A DNA stretch of 64,000 nt, taken from the NCBI GenBank assembly GCA_019358915.1, contig JAHHIM010000073.1, forward strand, positions 224,001-288,000, in the 5' to 3' direction. How positions within the stretch are numbered: the stretch's first letter is position 1; each line of letters starts with the position of its first letter. The DNA is from Trichormus sp. ATA11-4-KO1 (GTDB taxonomy: Bacteria > Cyanobacteriota > Cyanobacteriia > Cyanobacteriales > Nostocaceae). The translations under genes were made by a program, and so were the position numbers. Of this stretch, positions 3,350-64,000 are shown piece after piece. Under the pieces are notes generated by a model. That model did not search any database, was not told the DNA's origin, and saw only the letters and a program-made list of their open reading frames with translations.

Positions 3350-4057
3350 ATGGTTGAGCAAATTCTTATCAATGAAGATGATTTCTATGTGCCAGATGCC
3401 AACCAGCTAATCACTGAAGATGATACACCTGTGGACAATTTTGCATCTGAAAAACAACAACGCCTCTTGGTTGGCTCTCTTTACAGTTCTTTACAAAATC
3501 AGAATTTTTTAGCCGCAGCTAATGTTGGTATTTACTATACAGACCTCCAGCCTGCAATTGTACCTGATATTTTTCTTAGTTTAGATGCCCAAGTTCCAGA
3601 AAAATGGTGGGAAAAACAAAATCGTTGTTATATGGTTTGGCGTTTTGGTAAACCTCCAGAAGTAGTGGTGGAGATTGTTTCTAACAAAGAAGGTAATGAA
3701 CTAGGCAAAAAATTAAGAATTTATGAGCAAATGCGAGCGAGTTATTACATCGTATATGACCCAACACAGCAATTAGGAGAGCAAATACTACGGGTGTATG
3801 AACTTAGAGGAAGGCGCTATTTTGAAACTTCAGCGACTTGGCTAGAACAAGTAGGTTTAGGTATCACTCTATGGTCAGGAGAATTTGAAGGTAGACAAGA
3901 TACCTGGTTACGCTGGTGCTACCAAGATTTAACTATTCTACCTACTGGAGATGAACGGGCTGAACAGGAACGCCAACGGGCCGAACAAGCAGAAAAACGC
4001 GCCCAATCACTAGCAGAAAGACTCAGGGCTATAGGCATAGATCCTGATACTTTGTAA
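3350..4057 (+). CDS. Uma2 family (PD-(D/E)XK-fold) endonuclease
   Basis: VPDIFLS..PPEVVVEIVS, YYIVYDP, C-terminal ERAEQERQRAEQ coiled tail typical of cyanobacterial Uma2 proteins. Confidence 0.88.
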   Translation: MVEQILINEDDFYVPDANQLITEDDTPVDNFASEKQQRLLVGSLYSSLQNQNFLAAANVGIYYTDLQPAIVPDIFLSLDAQVPEKWWEKQNRCYMVWRFGKPPEVVVEIVSNKEGNELGKKLRIYEQMRASYYIVYDPTQQLGEQILRVYELRGRRYFETSATWLEQVGLGITLWSGEFEGRQDTWLRWCYQDLTILPTGDERAEQERQRAEQAEKRAQSLAERLRAIGIDPDTL

Positions 4058-4077
4058 AGGCATTTCATCAAACTTGT

Positions 4078-4977
4078 CTACACATTCTTGAAAAACTCCT
4101 CCACTCGCCGCCAAACCTTCTCTAACAAATCAGGATCATCTGCATCAAACCACTCAATTTGGGGATATGCCTTAAACCAAGTACGCTGTCGCTTGGCAAA
4201 TTGTCTTGTATGTAAAACCGTTAATTCCTTTGCTGACTCCAAAGAAATTTCACCAGCTAAATATTGCTTAATTTCTTGATACCCCAAAGTATTCAACAAA
4301 GGTAAATCAGCACCATATTTTTGACAAAGATATTCCACCTCAGTCACCAAACCATCAGCTATCATTTGCTCAGTGCGTTTTTGAATGCGTAGCCTTAAAT
4401 TTTCCACTTCGCAATCTAAACCAATTTGTAAAATCGGATAATTTGGTGGGTTTTCTCCTTGCTGCTGGGAAATTGGATAACCAGTAATATAAAATACTTC
4501 TACTGCTCGTAAAGTCCGCACAGTATCATGAGGATGAATCTTCTGTGCGGCGATCGCATCTACTTGTTGTAATATTTCATATAGCATAGTTTGTCCCAAA
4601 GATTCGAGTTGCGATCGCAATTCCTTTTGTGGTGAAACTCTGGGTATTTTCATGCCTCGGACAATAGAACGGATGTATAAACCTGTGCCTCCAACTAACA
4701 GGAGTGGTGAAATAGAAAGAGAAGCAATTAAGTTTTGTGCTTGCTCTTGATAGTCTGCTACCGTCATTGTGTCTGTTGGATCGCAGATATCTATTAAATA
4801 ATGTGGTACTAATTTTTGTTCTGCCAATGTTGGCTTAGCCGTACCAATATCAAACTCACGATACACCTGACGGGAATCTGCACTGAGAATTACAGAACCT
4901 AATCGTCTAGCTAAATTTAATGCCAAACCTGACTTACCAGTCGCTGTTGCACCACAAATTACAATCAATTTAGTCAT
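4078..4977 (-). CDS. miaA: tRNA dimethylallyltransferase MiaA
   Basis: GATATGKS, SADSRQVY, DIGTAKP, VGGTGLY, FAKRQRTWF. Confidence 0.97.
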   Translation of the reverse strand: MTKLIVICGATATGKSGLALNLARRLGSVILSADSRQVYREFDIGTAKPTLAEQKLVPHYLIDICDPTDTMTVADYQEQAQNLIASLSISPLLLVGGTGLYIRSIVRGMKIPRVSPQKELRSQLESLGQTMLYEILQQVDAIAAQKIHPHDTVRTLRAVEVFYITGYPISQQQGENPPNYPILQIGLDCEVENLRLRIQKRTEQMIADGLVTEVEYLCQKYGADLPLLNTLGYQEIKQYLAGEISLESAKELTVLHTRQFAKRQRTWFKAYPQIEWFDADDPDLLEKVWRRVEEFFKNV

Positions 4978-26106: not shown

Positions 26107-26158
26107 CTTCGTGTCCTTCTCTTCGAGACGCTTCGCGAACGTGCCTTTGTGGTTCGTT
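26107..26158 (-). repeat. Periodic AACCACAAAGG-type repeat with nested 21-bp SDR-like insertion (26120-26140)
   Basis: Removing TCTTCGAGACGCTTCGCGAAC restores a periodic cttcgtgtc-cttcgtgcc-tttgtggtt array. Confidence 0.7.
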
Positions 26159-26161
26159 AAA

Positions 26162-27493: not shown

Positions 27494-27536
27494 CAGTTTC
27501 TTTTTTGAGTCTCTATATTTAATTTAAGAGAAAATG

Positions 27537-27563
27537 AACCACAGAGGCGCAGAGGTCACAGAG
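27537..27563 (+). repeat. Periodic repeat AACCACAGAGGCGCAGAGGTCACAGAG
   Basis: Same family as 63553-63583 (inverted) and 26107-26158. Confidence 0.8.
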
Positions 27564-58349: not shown

Positions 58350-58826
58350 TTATTCCCCAGAAGGGATACTATCCAAAACCTGCTGAAATTCTGTTGTAGA
58401 AGAAAGAGCGATCGCTCTTTTCAGTAAAGTTTTCAGTACAGATGCATCTGTTTGTTCATAGTCCAAAAGCTTGGCCACAGGAAACTCTAAACTCACCCGA
58501 CATCCCCCCAATTGATACCTGTAGCTGGAAGGTCGCCAATTTGCCTGTTCATCTGCTAACACGGCTAAACTAATGACTCGCTTTTTATGGCGGTCAAACA
58601 AGCGGTAATTGTAGGTATACATCCGTTCGGCAAATTGGCTGTCATATTGTCCTTGGACTTCTACATGCACCAATACCCAAGCTTCTTCGCCATCCAGTAA
58701 CCAAACTTTTGCGACTTTATCAACCAAACGCCGACCAATTTCGGCATCAGGTTCTAGTTGTTGTAATTCTGTGTCCAGAAATTCATAAGGGCGTGTCCAG
58801 TCGATTGCAGCAGATTGCTCAGTCAT
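58350..58826 (-). CDS. Shortened Rpn/transposase_31-like PD-(D/E)XK protein (probable internal deletions)
   Basis: EFLDTEL..VDK..HVEVQ..FAERMYTYNYR; only 158 aa. Confidence 0.65.
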   Translation of the reverse strand: MTEQSAAIDWTRPYEFLDTELQQLEPDAEIGRRLVDKVAKVWLLDGEEAWVLVHVEVQGQYDSQFAERMYTYNYRLFDRHKKRVISLAVLADEQANWRPSSYRYQLGGCRVSLEFPVAKLLDYEQTDASVLKTLLKRAIALSSTTEFQQVLDSIPSGE

Positions 58827-58829
58827 GAA

Positions 58830-60536
58830 CTAAAACAAAAAGTATCTTTGCGCCATTGGTAACACTGTCGCCGGTTCACAAATCAGTAATTCACCATTTG
58901 CCCTGACTTCATAAGTTTCTGGATCAACTTCAATGTGAGGTAAGGCATCATTTAGCTTCATATCCCGTTTACTCACTTGGCGTGTCCCGGAAACGGCAAC
59001 GGCTGTCTTTTGTAAATTCAATTGACTGGGAATTTCTCTTTCTAATGCTGCTTGGGAAACAAACGTTAAAGATGTGGCGTGACGCGCCCCGGCAAAACTA
59101 CCAAACATCGGTCGTGTATGCACTGGTTGGGGTGTGGGGATACTGGCGTTAGCGTCACCCATTTGTGACCAAGCAATCATGCCGCCTTTAATCACGATCT
59201 CTGGTTTCACGCCAAAAAATGCAGGTCGCCATAAGCATAAGTCTGCAAGTTTCCCTGCTTCCACTGAACCCACATACTGGGCAATACCGTGAGTAATCGC
59301 TGAATTTATGGTATATTTAGCAACATATCTTTTAGCTCGAAAATTATCTGCTTGACCATCTTCAGCAAGACTTCCGCGCTGCACCTTCATTTTGTGGGAT
59401 GTCTGCCATGTGCGAATTATTACCTCACCAACTCGCCCCATTGCCTGGGAATCAGAAGCAATCATACTAAACGCGCCTAAGTCATGCAAAATATCTTCCG
59501 CCGCAATAGTTTCCCGGCGAATCCGAGACTCGGCAAAGGCGACATCTTCGGGAATTCCAGAATCGAGGTGATGACATACCATCAACATATCCAGGTGTTC
59601 TTCTAGGGTGTTAACGGTGTAAGGACGGGTGGGGTTGGTGGAAGATGGTAAAACGTTGGCTTGGCTGCAAACTTTGATAATATCTGGTGCATGTCCACCA
59701 CCTGCGCCTTCTGTATGGTAGGTGTGAATGGCACGATGTTTGAAAGCAGCAATGGTGTCTTCGACAAATCCGGCTTCATTTAAAGTATCAGTATGAATTG
59801 CTACTTGTACATCATATTCATCTGCAACACTGAGACAAGTATCTATAGTCGCGGGTGTGGTTCCCCAGTCTTCATGTAGCTTTAATCCCATTGCACCCGC
59901 TAAGACTTGTTCAACAATTCCTTGGGGTTGACTGGTGTTACCTTTACCCAAAAATCCTAAGTTCACAGGGAAAGCATCAGCAGCTTGTAACATGCGGTGA
60001 ATATTCCACGGGCCGGGGGTGCAGGTAGTGGCGTTTGTCCCTGTGGCGGGGCCAGTACCACCGCCAATCATCGTAGTAATTCCAGAGGCGATCGCCACTT
60101 CAATTTGTTGGGGGCAAATAAAATGAATATGACTATCAATACCGCCAGCCGTGAGAATCATCCCTTCTCCAGCTAAGGCTTCGGTTCCAGGGCCAATAAT
60201 AATATCTATATTGTCTTGAATATAAGGATTGCCGGCTTTACCAATTTTGCATATTTTGCCGTCTTTAATACCAATATCGGCTTTGACAATTCCCCACCAA
60301 TCGAGAATTAAGGCGTTGGTAATGACTAAATCTACTGCACCATCAGCGTTAGAAATGGGGGATTGTCCCATTCCGTCACGGATGACTTTACCGCCACCAA
60401 ACTTCACTTCATCACCGTAGGTTGTGAAATCTTGTTCTACTTCGATGAATAATTCTGTGTCTGCAAGACGGATGCGATCGCCTACTGTGGGACCATAGGT
60501 TTCTGCGTAGGCTTGGCGTGAGATTTTGTAAGGCAT
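58830..60536 (-). CDS. ureC: Urease subunit alpha
   Basis: [45 protein letters not shown]. Confidence 0.98.
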
Positions 60537-60572
60537 TATACAGTCCTGGATTTTGAGGTTAGAATTGTTTTG

Positions 60573-60592
60573 AAACGCAAAGGGACGCGAAG
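60573..60592 (+). repeat. Left inverted repeat of the GxxExxY cassette (AAACGCAAAGGGACGCGAAG)
   Basis: Reverse complement matches 60979-60995 over 17 nt and 61001-61020 at 18/20. Confidence 0.85.
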
Positions 60593-60593
60593 T

Positions 60594-60971
60594 ATGGATG
60601 AGAATGATTTAAGTTGGGCGATTATTGGTTGTGGAATGAGGGTGCATACGGTGTTGGGGCCTGGTTTGTTGGAGTCTGTGTATGAGGAGTGTTTGGATTA
60701 TGAATTAAGGCAGCAGGGATTTAAGGTTGGTAGGCAAATTCCCTTACATCTTGTGTATAAAGATGTGGAATTAGATTGTGTTTATCGATTGGATTTGATT
60801 GTAGAAAATAAAGTAGTGATTGAAGTTAAATCTGTAGAATCTCTTAAACCCATCCACGCAGTACAACTCTCAACCTACCTAAAACTCACTCACTGTAAAC
60901 TCGGCCTCCTCCTCAACTTCAACGTCCTCCACCTCAAACAAGGAATCAAACGCGTCGCCAACAACCTCTAA
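60594..60971 (+). CDS. GxxExxY family PD-(D/E)XK-like protein
   Basis: [37 protein letters not shown]; likely ATG at 60594. Confidence 0.92.
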
Positions 60972-60978
60972 ATCCTCT

Positions 60979-61020
60979 CTTCGCGTCCCTTTGCGCTCAC
61001 CTCCGCGTACCTTTGCGTTT
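60979..61020 (-). repeat. Right inverted repeats (two units) of the GxxExxY cassette
   Basis: cttcgcgtccctttgcg and ctccgcgtacctttgcgttt; abuts the ureB stop codon. Confidence 0.85.
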
Positions 61021-61324
61021 AAATCTTCCCATTAACCTTGCCATTAAAACCATAAACCTCACGACTTCCAACCAGAGGAACAAGAGTCACCGCCTTTTCA
61101 TCCCCTGGCTCAAACCGCACCGCCGTACCCGCAGGAATATCAAGCCTCATCCCCCGCGCTTGTTCCCGATCAAAATTCAAAGCCTGATTGACCTCATAAA
61201 AATGAAAATGGGAACCCACCTGAATCGGGCGATCGCCTGTATTAGCCACCTGTAACTTAATAGTAGAACGACCAGCATTTAACTCAATTTCACCATCTGG
61301 TGTAATAATTTCCCCTGGAATCAT
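61019..61324 (-). CDS. ureB: Urease subunit beta
   Basis: [35 protein letters not shown]. Confidence 0.98.
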
Positions 61325-61341
61325 AACAGAATTTTCCTAAT

Positions 61342-61998
61342 TTATAGATTTTCCAAAAATTGTACAAATGGCTTGAAAGCTTGAGGACATAATTCGGCAA
61401 TATCCTGATATCTAGCACTTCCTAATATAATTGGTGCATCTGTTTTGCCATCATATTTTTTGCCAAATTGCTTAAAAAGTTGCTCTACAATTTTTTTCGG
61501 TGGTTGATTATGATTTTGGTCTTCAACTGGTTTTGTCCATGTTATTGGTAAAGCATTAACACCAAGTATGCTGGTTAATTTTGATTCAGCAGCTAAAATT
61601 AAGGCTTCTAAATCATGTTTAAAGCAAAAAACCTTAAACCGACCTCTTAATCGACTATCATTAATTCCTTTAGAATTTAATACTTGATTAAAATTATTTA
61701 AAATACCATTTTCCAATTCTTGAATTGTTTCATGAGCAAAACCTTTGTTTTTGGGATATAAATCTGGCACTACTACCACAATCGAATCTGGCTGATTGCA
61801 GATAATATTGACTGCTTTAATTGGTGTCTTTGTCAGTAAATCTTTTTTAGCATCTCCTCCTTTATCATTATCCTTTCCCTTAACAGGAAAAAAATTGATG
61901 CTAATGCCCTGCTGTAATTTAGTTTCAATTAAACTTCCTAATAATGCTTCCATTGCGAATTTATCAGATGTGCCTTCAACATAAATATCAACTTTCAT
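61342..61998 (-). CDS. DUF4276-like (TOPRIM-related) protein
   Basis: IYVEGTSD, PDLYP, HDLEALILA, VEDQNH..PKK, Y..KTDAP.IL, CP..F..F. Confidence 0.75.
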   Translation of the reverse strand: MKVDIYVEGTSDKFAMEALLGSLIETKLQQGISINFFPVKGKDNDKGGDAKKDLLTKTPIKAVNIICNQPDSIVVVVPDLYPKNKGFAHETIQELENGILNNFNQVLNSKGINDSRLRGRFKVFCFKHDLEALILAAESKLTSILGVNALPITWTKPVEDQNHNQPPKKIVEQLFKQFGKKYDGKTDAPIILGSARYQDIAELCPQAFKPFVQFLENL

Positions 61999-63188
61999 GG
62001 AAGCCTCTCTAATTCATCGCTACGGTGTAACTGTTCTATTTCATCTGAGCCAAAATCGTCAAGCATATCAATTAAAACTTGAGAATTCCCAGGTTTAATA
62101 AACTTTGCTTCTCCATTCTCTTTTCTGAGTACAGCAATTTGAGCAATATCGAACTGTGTGAGAAAGTAGGAAGCATGAGTAGCTAAGAGAATTTGAGTTC
62201 GTTCAGAAGCTTTTTCAAATAAAGCAGCAAGAACAGGTAGTGTGCGAGGGTGTACACCTTGATCTGGTTCATCAATACAAATTAAAGAAGGCGGATTTGG
62301 CTGTACACAAAGACAAATCCAACAAATTAAACGCAAAATTCCATCTGATAAATCAGCAAGACTTAAATCTTCATCAATACCTGATTCCTGCCAAAAAGCT
62401 ATGACTTCTCCTGGTCCACCACGAGCTTTCACTGTTAAGCCTTTAAAACCAGGAATTACCGAACGTAAGTGTTGTTGTAGTTCGTCAAAAGCTGATTTAT
62501 GTTCAGTCATTAAGGAATATATAATTGAACTTAAATTACCTGCATCTTCCCGTAATACTGGTTCTTGTTCCAGGACAACTGATTTACGAATTTTATCATT
62601 TGCTATATTAAAAGAGCTATAAAATCTCCAATTACGAATATATTCACGTAAGTTATATAATGCTTCTAGTGATGGATTTATCATTGCACTCAGCGTTAGT
62701 TGATTATGACGCTTTAAAGCAATATCTTGTGCTATTTCTACTGGTGTAAATCGTGTTTCTCCAGGTTCTTTAATAACACCTTGATTACCTTGAATATCCA
62801 TATATATATATGGATTACTGTATCTATCACTAAAAGGTCTAGAAGACTCTACACGCTCATAGGATACTTGAGTTCGACCAACTGGACCCATCAGTTCTCC
62901 TAAATATCTCATACCAATAGGACGACCCGTATCAATTTCTATATCCCATTGAAATTTTTCCGGGCCAGGAATATGAAAAATTTTTTGACCAATAGAACCA
63001 GGAACAATTTCAGGAGGTATATCTTGATAAAGACTATCTCGTAAAAACTTCAGAAATTCAAACAAACTTGATTTACCAGCACCATTAGCACCAACAATAA
63101 TTTCTAGTGGTTGCAATGACGCTGCAAAATTCCTGAAGGGTCGATAACCTTGAATATTGACATTAGTCAATCTATATGGAGATAGCAT
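61995..63188 (-). CDS. ABC/AAA_21-type ATPase
   Basis: Walker A GANGAGKS, signature LSDG, Walker B CIDEPD, HP, ATH; 4-nt ATGA overlap with the next gene. Confidence 0.9.
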   Translation of the reverse strand: MLSPYRLTNVNIQGYRPFRNFAASLQPLEIIVGANGAGKSSLFEFLKFLRDSLYQDIPPEIVPGSIGQKIFHIPGPEKFQWDIEIDTGRPIGMRYLGELMGPVGRTQVSYERVESSRPFSDRYSNPYIYMDIQGNQGVIKEPGETRFTPVEIAQDIALKRHNQLTLSAMINPSLEALYNLREYIRNWRFYSSFNIANDKIRKSVVLEQEPVLREDAGNLSSIIYSLMTEHKSAFDELQQHLRSVIPGFKGLTVKARGGPGEVIAFWQESGIDEDLSLADLSDGILRLICWICLCVQPNPPSLICIDEPDQGVHPRTLPVLAALFEKASERTQILLATHASYFLTQFDIAQIAVLRKENGEAKFIKPGNSQVLIDMLDDFGSDEIEQLHRSDELERLP

Positions 63189-63240
63189 CTTTTTCCTCTA
63201 TTTCGCTGACCTTCTATTTCTCATATTAAGTATTTTTTTC

Positions 63241-63543
63241 CTAACGAATCGGATGATGCACAGTTACCAACTTCGTACCATCAGGAAAAGTTGCCTCCAC
63301 CTGTACCTCATGAACCATTTCCGAGACACCCTCCATCACATCATCCCGCGTTAACAGCGTCGTCCCATAACTCATCAATTCCGCCACCGTTTGTCCATCC
63401 CTCGCACCCTCCAAAATAGCAGCCGAAATATAAGCCACCGCCTCTGGATAATTCAACTTCAAACCCCTATGCTTACGTCTCTCAGCCACTAAAGCAGCCG
63501 TAAAAATCAATAACTTATCCTTCTCTTGCGGCGTAAGTTGCAT
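63241..63543 (-). CDS. ureA: Urease subunit gamma
   Basis: [31 protein letters not shown]. Confidence 0.98.
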
Positions 63544-63552
63544 TCTTCCCTC

Positions 63553-63583
63553 CTCCGTGTTCTCTGCGCCTCTGTGGTTCGTT
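63553..63583 (-). repeat. Periodic repeat (minus strand AACGAACCACAGAGGCGCAGAGAACACGGAG) between ureD and ureA
   Basis: Shares AACCACAGAGGCGCAGAG with 27537-27563. Confidence 0.8.
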
Positions 63584-64000
63584 CAAACCTGCCATACTCT
63601 AGGTACACAGCCACCACGTTGTAAAAAAGACACCCGTAGCAACTGCCAAACAACCGTAAACAAGTTTCTCACCTCAGACGTAGAAGCACCACGGTATCGA
63701 CACAAAAATCCATTTTGTAACTGCGTCACCCCAACTTCCCCTACCCCGTCCCATAAACTCCGCGCTTTTGCCAAGATTTCCCCAGAAACCGCACCTCCCA
63801 CCCAAACCAGACTACCCACTATTGGTTGTCCAGCCAAACCATGAGGACTGTGAAACACTTCTTCATTACCGGGTAACCACTGACGATCCATCCATAAAGG
63901 CACACCTTCCTGCCAAATTTCGGTATGCGATCGCCATTCTCCCTGTAAAAACTTTTCTCCTCTAGCACTGCGACCAAATCGAGTAATTTCCCAACCTAGG
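63583..64000 (-). CDS. ureD: Urease accessory protein UreD (3' part; runs off the window)
   Basis: Frame open to the window edge: LGWEITRFGRSARGEKF..CRYRG..PRVW. Confidence 0.92.
   Translation of the reverse strand, partial: LGWEITRFGRSARGEKFLQGEWRSHTEIWQEGVPLWMDRQWLPGNEEVFHSPHGLAGQPIVGSLVWVGGAVSGEILAKARSLWDGVGEVGVTQLQNGFLCRYRGASTSEVRNLFTVVWQLLRVSFLQRGGCVPRVWQV

Follow-up and report, generated by a model that had tools for sequence, protein, structure and literature searches.

Short tandem repeats built on the unit CRCVRAG are surrounded, in the cyanobacterium Trichormus sp. ATA11-4-KO1, by a two-sided compositional halo in which third codon positions of the neighbouring genes are rich in G and T on the strand that reads the repeat, whatever the direction of those genes. 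The case examined in most depth lies in a stretch of 64,000 nucleotides of contig JAHHIM010000073.1 (C73:224001-288000 of the 5.97 Mb genome, labelled G000 here; this whole stretch is referred to as the window), in which two such arrays frame a small gene of the GxxExxY family inside the urease operon. The feature is real and general in Nostocaceae, and its address, orientation, symmetry, decay with distance, cancellation between opposed neighbours, dependence on the age of the copy and co-occurrence with the GxxExxY gene are matters of direct observation. For their cause we tentatively favour, at close to an even chance, a repeat-nuclease system in which the host would rewrite, with fixed strand polarity, the DNA around nuclease-addressed arrays.

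An oriented halo around CRCVRAG arrays

The urease operon of the window runs on the minus strand in the order ureD, ureA, an AAA_21 plus DUF4276 gene pair, ureB and a gene that we take to be ureC from its position in the operon. The GxxExxY gene (60594-60971, plus strand; 125 aa) lies antisense between ureB and ureC. It is framed by array A (60573-60592, plus strand), with two CRCVRAG units at 60576 and 60586 spaced 10 bp apart, and by array B (60979-61020, minus strand), with four units at 61017, 61007, 60995 and 60985; both arrays point into the gene and together they form inverted arms of 23-24 bp. Within the gene the third codon positions change sides: of the first 40 codons, 36 have G/T in third position (20 G, 16 T and no C), and of the last 41 sense codons, 39 have C/A there (27 C, 12 A and no G). 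The cumulative flip falls after codon 69, near 60801, about midway between the inward-facing arrays. A preliminary description of this DNA had counted these codons, and those of ureA and ureC given below, by hand and had placed the flip between the opposed repeats; the recount reproduced every figure exactly.

The same rule holds for the urease genes. On the minus strand, which array B reads, 83 of the 102 codons of ureB (61019-61324, minus strand; PF00699) end in G/T, a skew absent from the preliminary description. Array C, a solo array of three units (63553-63583, minus strand; units at 63576, 63568 and 63559), lies between ureD and ureA and has a G/T-rich minus strand on both of its sides: 3' of it, 86 of the 101 codons of ureA (63241-63543, minus strand) end in G/T and one in C, and 5' of it, in the 3' part of ureD (63583-63999, minus strand; PF01774), the figure for G/T is 55 of the last 80 codons. 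The first 40 codons of ureC (60417-60536, minus strand) end in C/A in 32 cases, which makes the plus strand, read by array A, the G/T-rich one. This last skew had been attributed to the repeat, an attribution that stands only in part: the 5' end of ureC carries 15.3 G/T per 40 codons in seven orthologues without an upstream repeat against 13.1 in 14 with one, and because the repeat-less orthologues also lean to C/A, only a small part of the lean is due to the repeat. Binomial P values against 0.5 range from 9e-5 (ureC) to 1e-13 (ureA), and the genome-wide sense skew is -0.002. Two further solo arrays of the window behave likewise. One (26113-26160, minus strand) lies at the junction of two genes that are presumably glcE and glcF (names as in the preliminary description) and has its own two-sided halo, with 32 G/T in the last full 40-codon bin of glcE and 26, 35 and 31 of 40 in the first bins of glcF; the other, of three units (27536-27563, plus strand), has flank skews of +0.36 and +0.17. 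Units within arrays are spaced 8-12 bp. Arrays A, B and C fold no better than shuffled sequence (z -0.62, -0.88 and -0.85, respectively), so that no hairpin is indicated, and 60300-64000 has no Rfam match.

Genome-wide, with genes taken from a simple ORF caller (4995 ORFs, some of them wrong, which adds noise without orientation bias), 196 of 34,294 windows of 40 codons have a skew of at least 0.6, against 6 expected. Around oriented CRCVRAG repeats the mean third-position skew is +0.115 within 500 bp of 194 copies (239 clusters minus 45 of one family resembling miniature inverted-repeat transposable elements, MITEs), with a standard deviation of 0.018 when orientations are flipped at random; 128 of the 194 copies are positive and 63 negative. 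A looser first pattern with 371 hits diluted the signal and was replaced. As the preliminary description had proposed, the skew follows the orientation of the repeat and not that of the gene: both flanks are G/T-rich on the repeat-reading strand, with genes on either strand. The halo is maximal at the repeat, fades over about 600-900 bp on either side and is symmetric (+0.078 on the 5' side and +0.083 on the 3' side; 274 and 261 sites, respectively). In a scan of about 129,000 9-mers for oriented flank skew, words of the repeat reach z values of 10.1, 7.6 and 7.2 (uncorrected for overlapping windows) and ranks 1, 2 and 6; they are themselves A/C-rich and take ranks 1-3 among words with at most four G/T. 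Ten other repeat motifs (six heptamer or similar tandem families and four dispersed ones) have halos of only -0.03 to +0.02. The halo is specific to the CRCVRAG family.

Its strength depends on the kind of copy. Single copies inside ORFs have +0.198 (25 copies), those in short gaps +0.172 (49) and those in long gaps +0.040 (87); young multi-copy elements have +0.010 (67 copies) and close opposed pairs, to which 33 of the 261 scored copies belong, +0.002. The AGGATAATCTC family, with 45 copies, is a young MITE-like element that carries repeat units at one end and has almost no halo. Looking from the skew to the repeat, a same-strand copy lies within 300 bp of 22 of the 30 strongest patches, and in no case is an opposite-strand copy the only one nearby; among random windows, 16 of 400 have a plus-strand site. 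The repeat accounts for the strongest patches and not for all, because 332 of the genome's 405 extreme patches lack a copy within 300 bp.

These data bear on selection on codons, mRNA structure or protein sequence near gene ends or loops, an explanation that we hold to be highly improbable. Many arrays do lie at gene boundaries or in variable loops, and there is a slight shift (below 0.3 in log-odds) at first and second codon positions. However, the sign of the skew on the mRNA reverses in antisense genes, and this strand reversal largely refutes the explanation; gene ends in general have only +0.03 to +0.06, and other repeats in similar positions have no halo.

Among the patches without a repeat is that near 3950-4400 of the window, for which the preliminary description rightly noted none of these repeats. 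It covers the 3' end of a gene (4078-4977, minus strand) that is presumably miaA-like, in which the G/T fraction of the last 80 codons is 0.71. A decayed GTAGA..TCTAC palindrome follows its stop codon and is better preserved in four relatives. A lost repeat copy was considered as the cause and rejected, a same-strand repeat being detected in one of 30 orthologues; a few others have repeat remnants by eye. Five other strong repeat-less patches of G000 (C28:20025-20640, C67:6464-6776, C34:28366-28933, C45:15748-16672 and C56:11106-12429) presumably correspond to two group II intron-like reverse transcriptase genes, psbA, an integrase-like gene and a primase-like gene. In the patches of the reverse transcriptase genes, G/T lies on the antisense, cDNA-like strand.

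The GxxExxY protein and its repeats

The protein encoded between arrays A and B scores 145.6 bits against PF13366 (PDDEXK_3; cut-off 22) and 147.1 bits against TIGR04256 (cut-off 35). Its candidate catalytic residues D67, E77 and K79 are intact; in an alignment of 52 sequences, which took in 49 of 80 cross-phylum GxxExxY proteins, D67 and K79 are invariant and E77 occurs in at least 90%. The preliminary description had assigned a PD-(D/E)XK-like fold, with which the predicted structure agrees: the model has a mean predicted local distance difference test score (pLDDT) of 95.2, and its best structural matches are PD-(D/E)XK nucleases, e.g., BpuSI (Z 7.8, root-mean-square deviation 2.6, 91 residues aligned) and Cas4 SSO0001 (Z 7.8, 4.3 and 101, respectively). 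With such middling scores, these matches point only to a generic PD-(D/E)XK nuclease. A Foldseek search with the model gave no match at E ≤0.001, and sequence searches found no solved structural relative. The function of PDDEXK_3 is listed as unknown in the tabulation available to us (PMC3424549), and our literature search returned no paper linking GxxExxY to repeats.

That the repeats are tied to GxxExxY genes, as suggested earlier for this locus, is borne out by framing, co-occurrence and flip. All three GxxExxY genes of G000 are framed by inward-facing arrays and all three have the flip, including one cassette with a different unit type on both flanks. Across Nostocaceae, the change from G/T to C/A is found in 31 of 31 readable GxxExxY genes (34 loci, three of which could not be parsed). 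PF13366 is found in 63 of 81 Nostocaceae genomes; matches to the tandem pattern have a median of 289 per genome with the gene and 32 without, and at least 100 matches occur in 60 of the 63 genomes with it against 3 of the 18 lacking it. Loci within one genome resemble each other more closely in their unit variants (0.43, 27 pairs) than loci of different genomes do (0.26; permutation P 0.011), which suggests concerted turnover of the units. In other phyla, from which most of a further 80 GxxExxY loci come (eight could not be parsed), 60 of the 72 readable genes have such arrays adjacent to them. The flip there is weak, at +4.2 of 45 codons over 24 loci with simple inward arrays, and a host-gene halo outside Nostocaceae is not established. 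In a Gemmataceae genome (G081, the genome behind locus L108), many of the 98 matches are inward doublets about 95-105 bp apart that look like gene-less mini-cassettes; in G082, pairs are mostly outward-facing.

It could be that GxxExxY only spreads the repeats and that a replication, repair or recombination factor of Nostocaceae uses the array as a polar landmark, with no nuclease taking part. We consider this rather unlikely, but several observations agree with it: Nostocaceae have a strong halo, which in other phyla that carry these cassettes is weak or missing; a further motif of the host, HIP1, has a small keto-skew step of its own (see below); and the three genomes with at least 100 matches and no detected gene (G037, G061, at 72% completeness, and G070) hold repeats in its apparent absence. 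Against it stands the dependence of repeat abundance and integrity on the gene, and the G000 cassette with a different unit type on both flanks, which still flips, suits a cognate enzyme better than one host factor.

Several neighbouring features were recorded. The AT-rich DUF4276 and AAA_21 ATPase genes between ureA and ureB (61342-63188, minus strand; Pfam) have little or no halo (G/T in 108 of 219 and 225 of 398 codons, respectively). In the sister species ureB directly follows ureA, the pair being absent, and it is probably a mobile toxin-antitoxin or defence pair. At locus L232 (G033:C19), the GxxExxY cassette upstream of ureC runs in the direction of the operon, and it is antisense in 10 other genomes; either inversion between the arms or a separate insertion could account for this. 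Downstream of ureC, a 158-aa ORF (58350-58826) has no Pfam or NCBIfam match at the thresholds used; it seems to resemble the N-terminal part of Rpn-like transposase proteins.

Substitutions, orthologues and the origin of the skew

At 34 strongly skewed sites, the log-odds of G over A at third positions are raised by 1.20-1.46 and those of T over C by 0.94-1.24. Most of the change is between the two purines or between the two pyrimidines, with the proportion of purines moving by only +0.22 and -0.06 log units, and pooled over contexts at 59 sites chosen for their skew the two shifts are 0.96 and 0.95. GC content at fourfold sites rises from 0.377 to 0.43. Comparison with a sister species (G011; about 890 kb aligned at 95.7% identity, with 16 strong shared loci) allows three origins of the skew to be set against each other, on forward and back rates derived from present-day pairs and assumed to be at equilibrium. 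A/G differences number 145, where 182 are expected from added forward mutation, 92 from fixation or conversion bias and 54 from suppressed back mutation, and about 99 from background by hand computation; C/T differences number 63, where the first three expectations are 117, 62 and 37, respectively. A relic skew decaying at background rates roughly fits this sister as well (195 expected and 208 seen, by hand estimate). Divergence near shared repeats is 0.096, against 0.066 in intergenic, 0.070 in other-repeat and 0.094 in mid-gene controls. Transversions are raised as much as transitions, and synonymous divergence amounts to 1.0-1.45 times the control value. Local divergence is no more variable near repeats than elsewhere (Levene P 0.54), so that there is no sign of extra allele exchange.

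The preliminary description had spoken of a repeat-directed mutagenesis system and had pointed to deamination of single-stranded DNA as its signature; neither proposal fared well. The rate was overstated, since divergence near repeats equals that of mid-gene controls and transversions rise alike, which is not hypermutation. Deamination, in which the repeat-reading strand would be left single-stranded and C>U and A>I changes would add C>T and A>G, is in our judgement distinctly unlikely. Its merits are that the shift stays mainly within purines and within pyrimidines, that divergence near shared repeats exceeds the intergenic and other-repeat controls, and that A/G differences are raised above background. 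However, deamination should act mostly on C, and C>T is not the dominant change here: the G/A shift equals or exceeds the T/C shift, GC content goes up, and C/T differences lie below background, at 63 against the 117 predicted. The equal rise of transversions and the similar divergence of mid-gene controls also speak against it.

Orthologues provide a natural experiment, since the repeat also occurs in frame in variable loops of metH, chlH and mutS. Each gene has a match in 77-80 genomes, and among its 30 closest orthologues the G/T excess near the loop over that far from it is 0.28, 0.33 and 0.24, respectively, with at least two units, and 0.14, 0.23 and 0.10 with none, and it rises with the number of units (Spearman 0.63, 0.52 and 0.59). 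In 29 orthologues of ureA (one of 30 loci was left out), G/T ranges from 40 to 85 per 100 codons and follows the number of flanking units (Spearman 0.64), with a mean of 48 in the nine orthologues without units and 65 in the 12 with at least two. The expectation that orthologues lacking the repeat would lack the skew is thus upheld in that skew tracks the integrity of the repeat, but not in full, because orthologues without intact units keep a weaker one. Most unit-less metH and chlH orthologues have recognisable repeat remnants at the same loop, and mutS has little skew in most lineages with heptamer repeats or nothing in the loop. These loci were chosen for their skew in G000. In the metH, chlH and mutS loops of different genera (L139, L160, L169, L179, L198, L199, L204 and L227), a short palindromic element is nested just after the first bases of the array, an arrangement like that of the small dispersed repeat (SDR) elements of Nostoc. 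In ileS (G000 C27:57351-60351), which has a repeat with a strong halo, identity is 88% to the sister species and 89% to another genus, against the 95.7% average; allele exchange is possible.

An inverse order of events, in which repeats insert into, or persist better in, patches already skewed for another reason, would sit well with the 332 extreme patches that lack a nearby repeat, with the skew that remains in orthologues without intact units and with the lineage-specific repeats, which lie in DNA equally skewed in both sister genomes. We nevertheless find it improbable, since young multi-copy elements lie in unskewed DNA, the skew peaks at the array and decays on both sides, and the unit-less metH and chlH loops mostly hold repeat remnants.

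In the repeat-nuclease reading, CRCVRAG arrays would be the target sites of a selfish system, and the GxxExxY protein, encoded between two inward-facing arrays and associated with the solo arrays across genomes, would act to maintain dozens to hundreds of them. An array would be engaged, probably by a nick in a fixed strand, after which host repair or recombination would rewrite several hundred bases on both sides; a fixed polarity of this rewriting is suggested because the halo is two-sided, on the same strand and decaying. Transition mispairs made or met in the patch would then be resolved in favour of G/T on the strand that reads the repeat, with A>G and C>T contributing alike, an outcome consistent with the composition of the halo. 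The process would be slow, of the order of neutral divergence, with young copies having no halo, old copies a strong one and opposed neighbours cancelling. Most likely the halo arises as a side effect of maintaining the repeats and does not serve adaptive diversification.

Several results weigh against this reading. Unit-less orthologues still have +0.10 to +0.23 near minus far, and in four genomes without an intact gene (G019, G057, G007 and G078) the loop repeats have decayed and the skew persists. The relation between skew and unit number has exceptions in both directions (L008, L028, L223 and L226), and the genomes are kin, so that cross-genome P values are too strong. Repeats present in one sister only bring no directional excess of differences: within 300 bp of copies specific to G011, C/T stands at 31 against 37 for T/C, and A/G at 35 against 46 for G/A. 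Rates are mixed, because at twofold sites in G011 the 75 A/G differences equal the 75 expected from added forward mutation and the 27 C/T differences lie near the 25 of fixation bias, against 45 for added mutation. In the next genus (G029; nine loci, twofold sites, corrected for saturation), the values for added mutation, fixation bias and suppressed back mutation are 145, 86 and 52 for A/G, with 89 seen, and 78, 54 and 37 for C/T, with 41 seen; these differences are at or below the fixation-bias value. The context that is a hotspot for A>G in Escherichia coli, a 3' C, ranks lowest in the halo (0.55, compared with 1.39 for a 3' G). Outside Nostocaceae, the host-gene halo is at most weak (37 of 64 loci positive, P 0.08), and three test genomes have 12 of 18, 8 of 12 and 3 of 9 positive loci; many copies in these three are paired and would thus cancel.

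Related systems and meaning

The HIP1 palindrome, GCGATCGC, is present in the window, e.g., at 60474-60481, and has a small step of its own. Together with heptamer tandem repeats, HIP1 palindromes are the mark of a filamentous cyanobacterium in this DNA. At 1875 in-gene sites, the codons preceding HIP1 have a third-position G/T skew of +0.034 and those following it one of -0.023 (standard error 0.005), with two control palindromes flat. The left minus right difference is about +0.045 up to 300 bp away and +0.015 at 600-1200 bp, and here most of the palindromes used as controls show no step. The word 'skew' is absent from the main text of a HIP1 paper (PMC5861425).

The known features closest to the halo are GRINS, whose local, correlated G>C and T>A skews are, according to the portion of the 2021 report available to us, strongest at third positions, switch sign within 1 kb and have an unknown cause, which its authors tie to gene conversion and error-prone synthesis (PMC8256042). 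The repeat-bearing patches share the correlated excess of G and T (log-odds of 0.94-1.46 at third positions and below 0.3 at first and second). In contrast to GRINS, which that portion of the report describes as duplicated regions of more than 500 bp with no anchoring motif (PMC8256042), the halos lie in single-copy genes of the host, and an oriented tandem repeat tied to a nuclease gene sets both where they occur and which sign they take. None of 66 repeat-bearing patches is duplicated over more than 500 bp at more than 80% identity, those of the window matching only themselves, and on the second defining property of GRINS three patches fall short, with GC at 0.43-0.51 but TA at 0.12-0.15. 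The two strongest patches of G000 (C41:29984-32425 and C36:407300-409300) have skews of up to 1.0 and no repeat, share 87-94% identity over 1245 and 672 bp, and are likely a true GRINS pair.

The organisation of the GxxExxY system recalls that of REP/REPIN elements and RAYT as presented in the available text of Bertels and Rainey (2011; PMC3116915), with a small enzyme gene framed by its own repeats, many solo or doublet copies, and enzyme copies with differing repeat types. Framing and abundance in the presence of the gene are as described above, and inverted doublets are common in the Gemmataceae genome, the share of copies in close opposed pairs in G000 being 33 of 261. However, CRCVRAG units form direct, non-palindromic tandem arrays that do not fold, unlike the hairpins of REP, and the PD-(D/E)XK fold of GxxExxY differs from the IS200-like tyrosine transposase of RAYT. 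No flanking halo is described in that text (PMC3116915), and around REP-like motifs of G000 no mirror-type skew was found. As to chemistry, uncorrected replication errors in E. coli defective in mismatch repair favour A>G and C>T on the same strand (2.44- and 2.34-fold), and in proficient cells strand bias is present for C only, as far as the available text of Foster et al. goes (10.1101/346874). The halo resembles the first of these in its paired A>G and C>T shifts of similar size, whereas the E. coli bias is chromosome-wide and set by the origin, and the halo is local, keeps to one strand to either side of its site and has a different sequence context. Diversity-generating retroelements, with a template and variable repeat pair and adenine-specific change, do not match patches that are single-copy and in which the C/T shift equals the A/G shift. 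The SDR elements, reportedly described by Elhai et al. in 2008, are said to be very short mobile repeats found in gaps and ORFs and nested in one another, and are thus like CRCVRAG arrays, some of which may already be among the catalogued SDR families. We know of no link between SDR elements and GxxExxY or flanking strand skew.

The view that nothing like this had been described agrees with our literature search, which found no account of this system, most subscription papers lying outside it. It is conceivable, at somewhat less than an even chance, that a widespread and undescribed class of selfish repeat-nuclease systems has GxxExxY proteins as its enzymes. Strand-specific nicks by these at short oriented repeats would lead the host to rewrite hundreds of bases to either side with fixed polarity and to recode metH, chlH, mutS, ileS and the urease genes; skews of the GRINS type would then gain a first defined address and a trigger to be considered, and at HIP1 the host would be running this process on a palindrome. 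GRINS skews have been described yet are unexplained, and the CRCVRAG halo supplies a sequence address, rules for orientation and for cancellation, a decay length and a candidate enzyme. The cause can therefore be tested through one small gene or one 30-bp array, which makes both the trigger and the chemistry of the halo directly testable. The HIP1 step bears on the question of the role of HIP1. In core cyanobacterial genes, a repeat nearby, rather than selection, can determine codon usage, GC3 and synonymous rates, with consequences for phylogenetic and codon-bias work.

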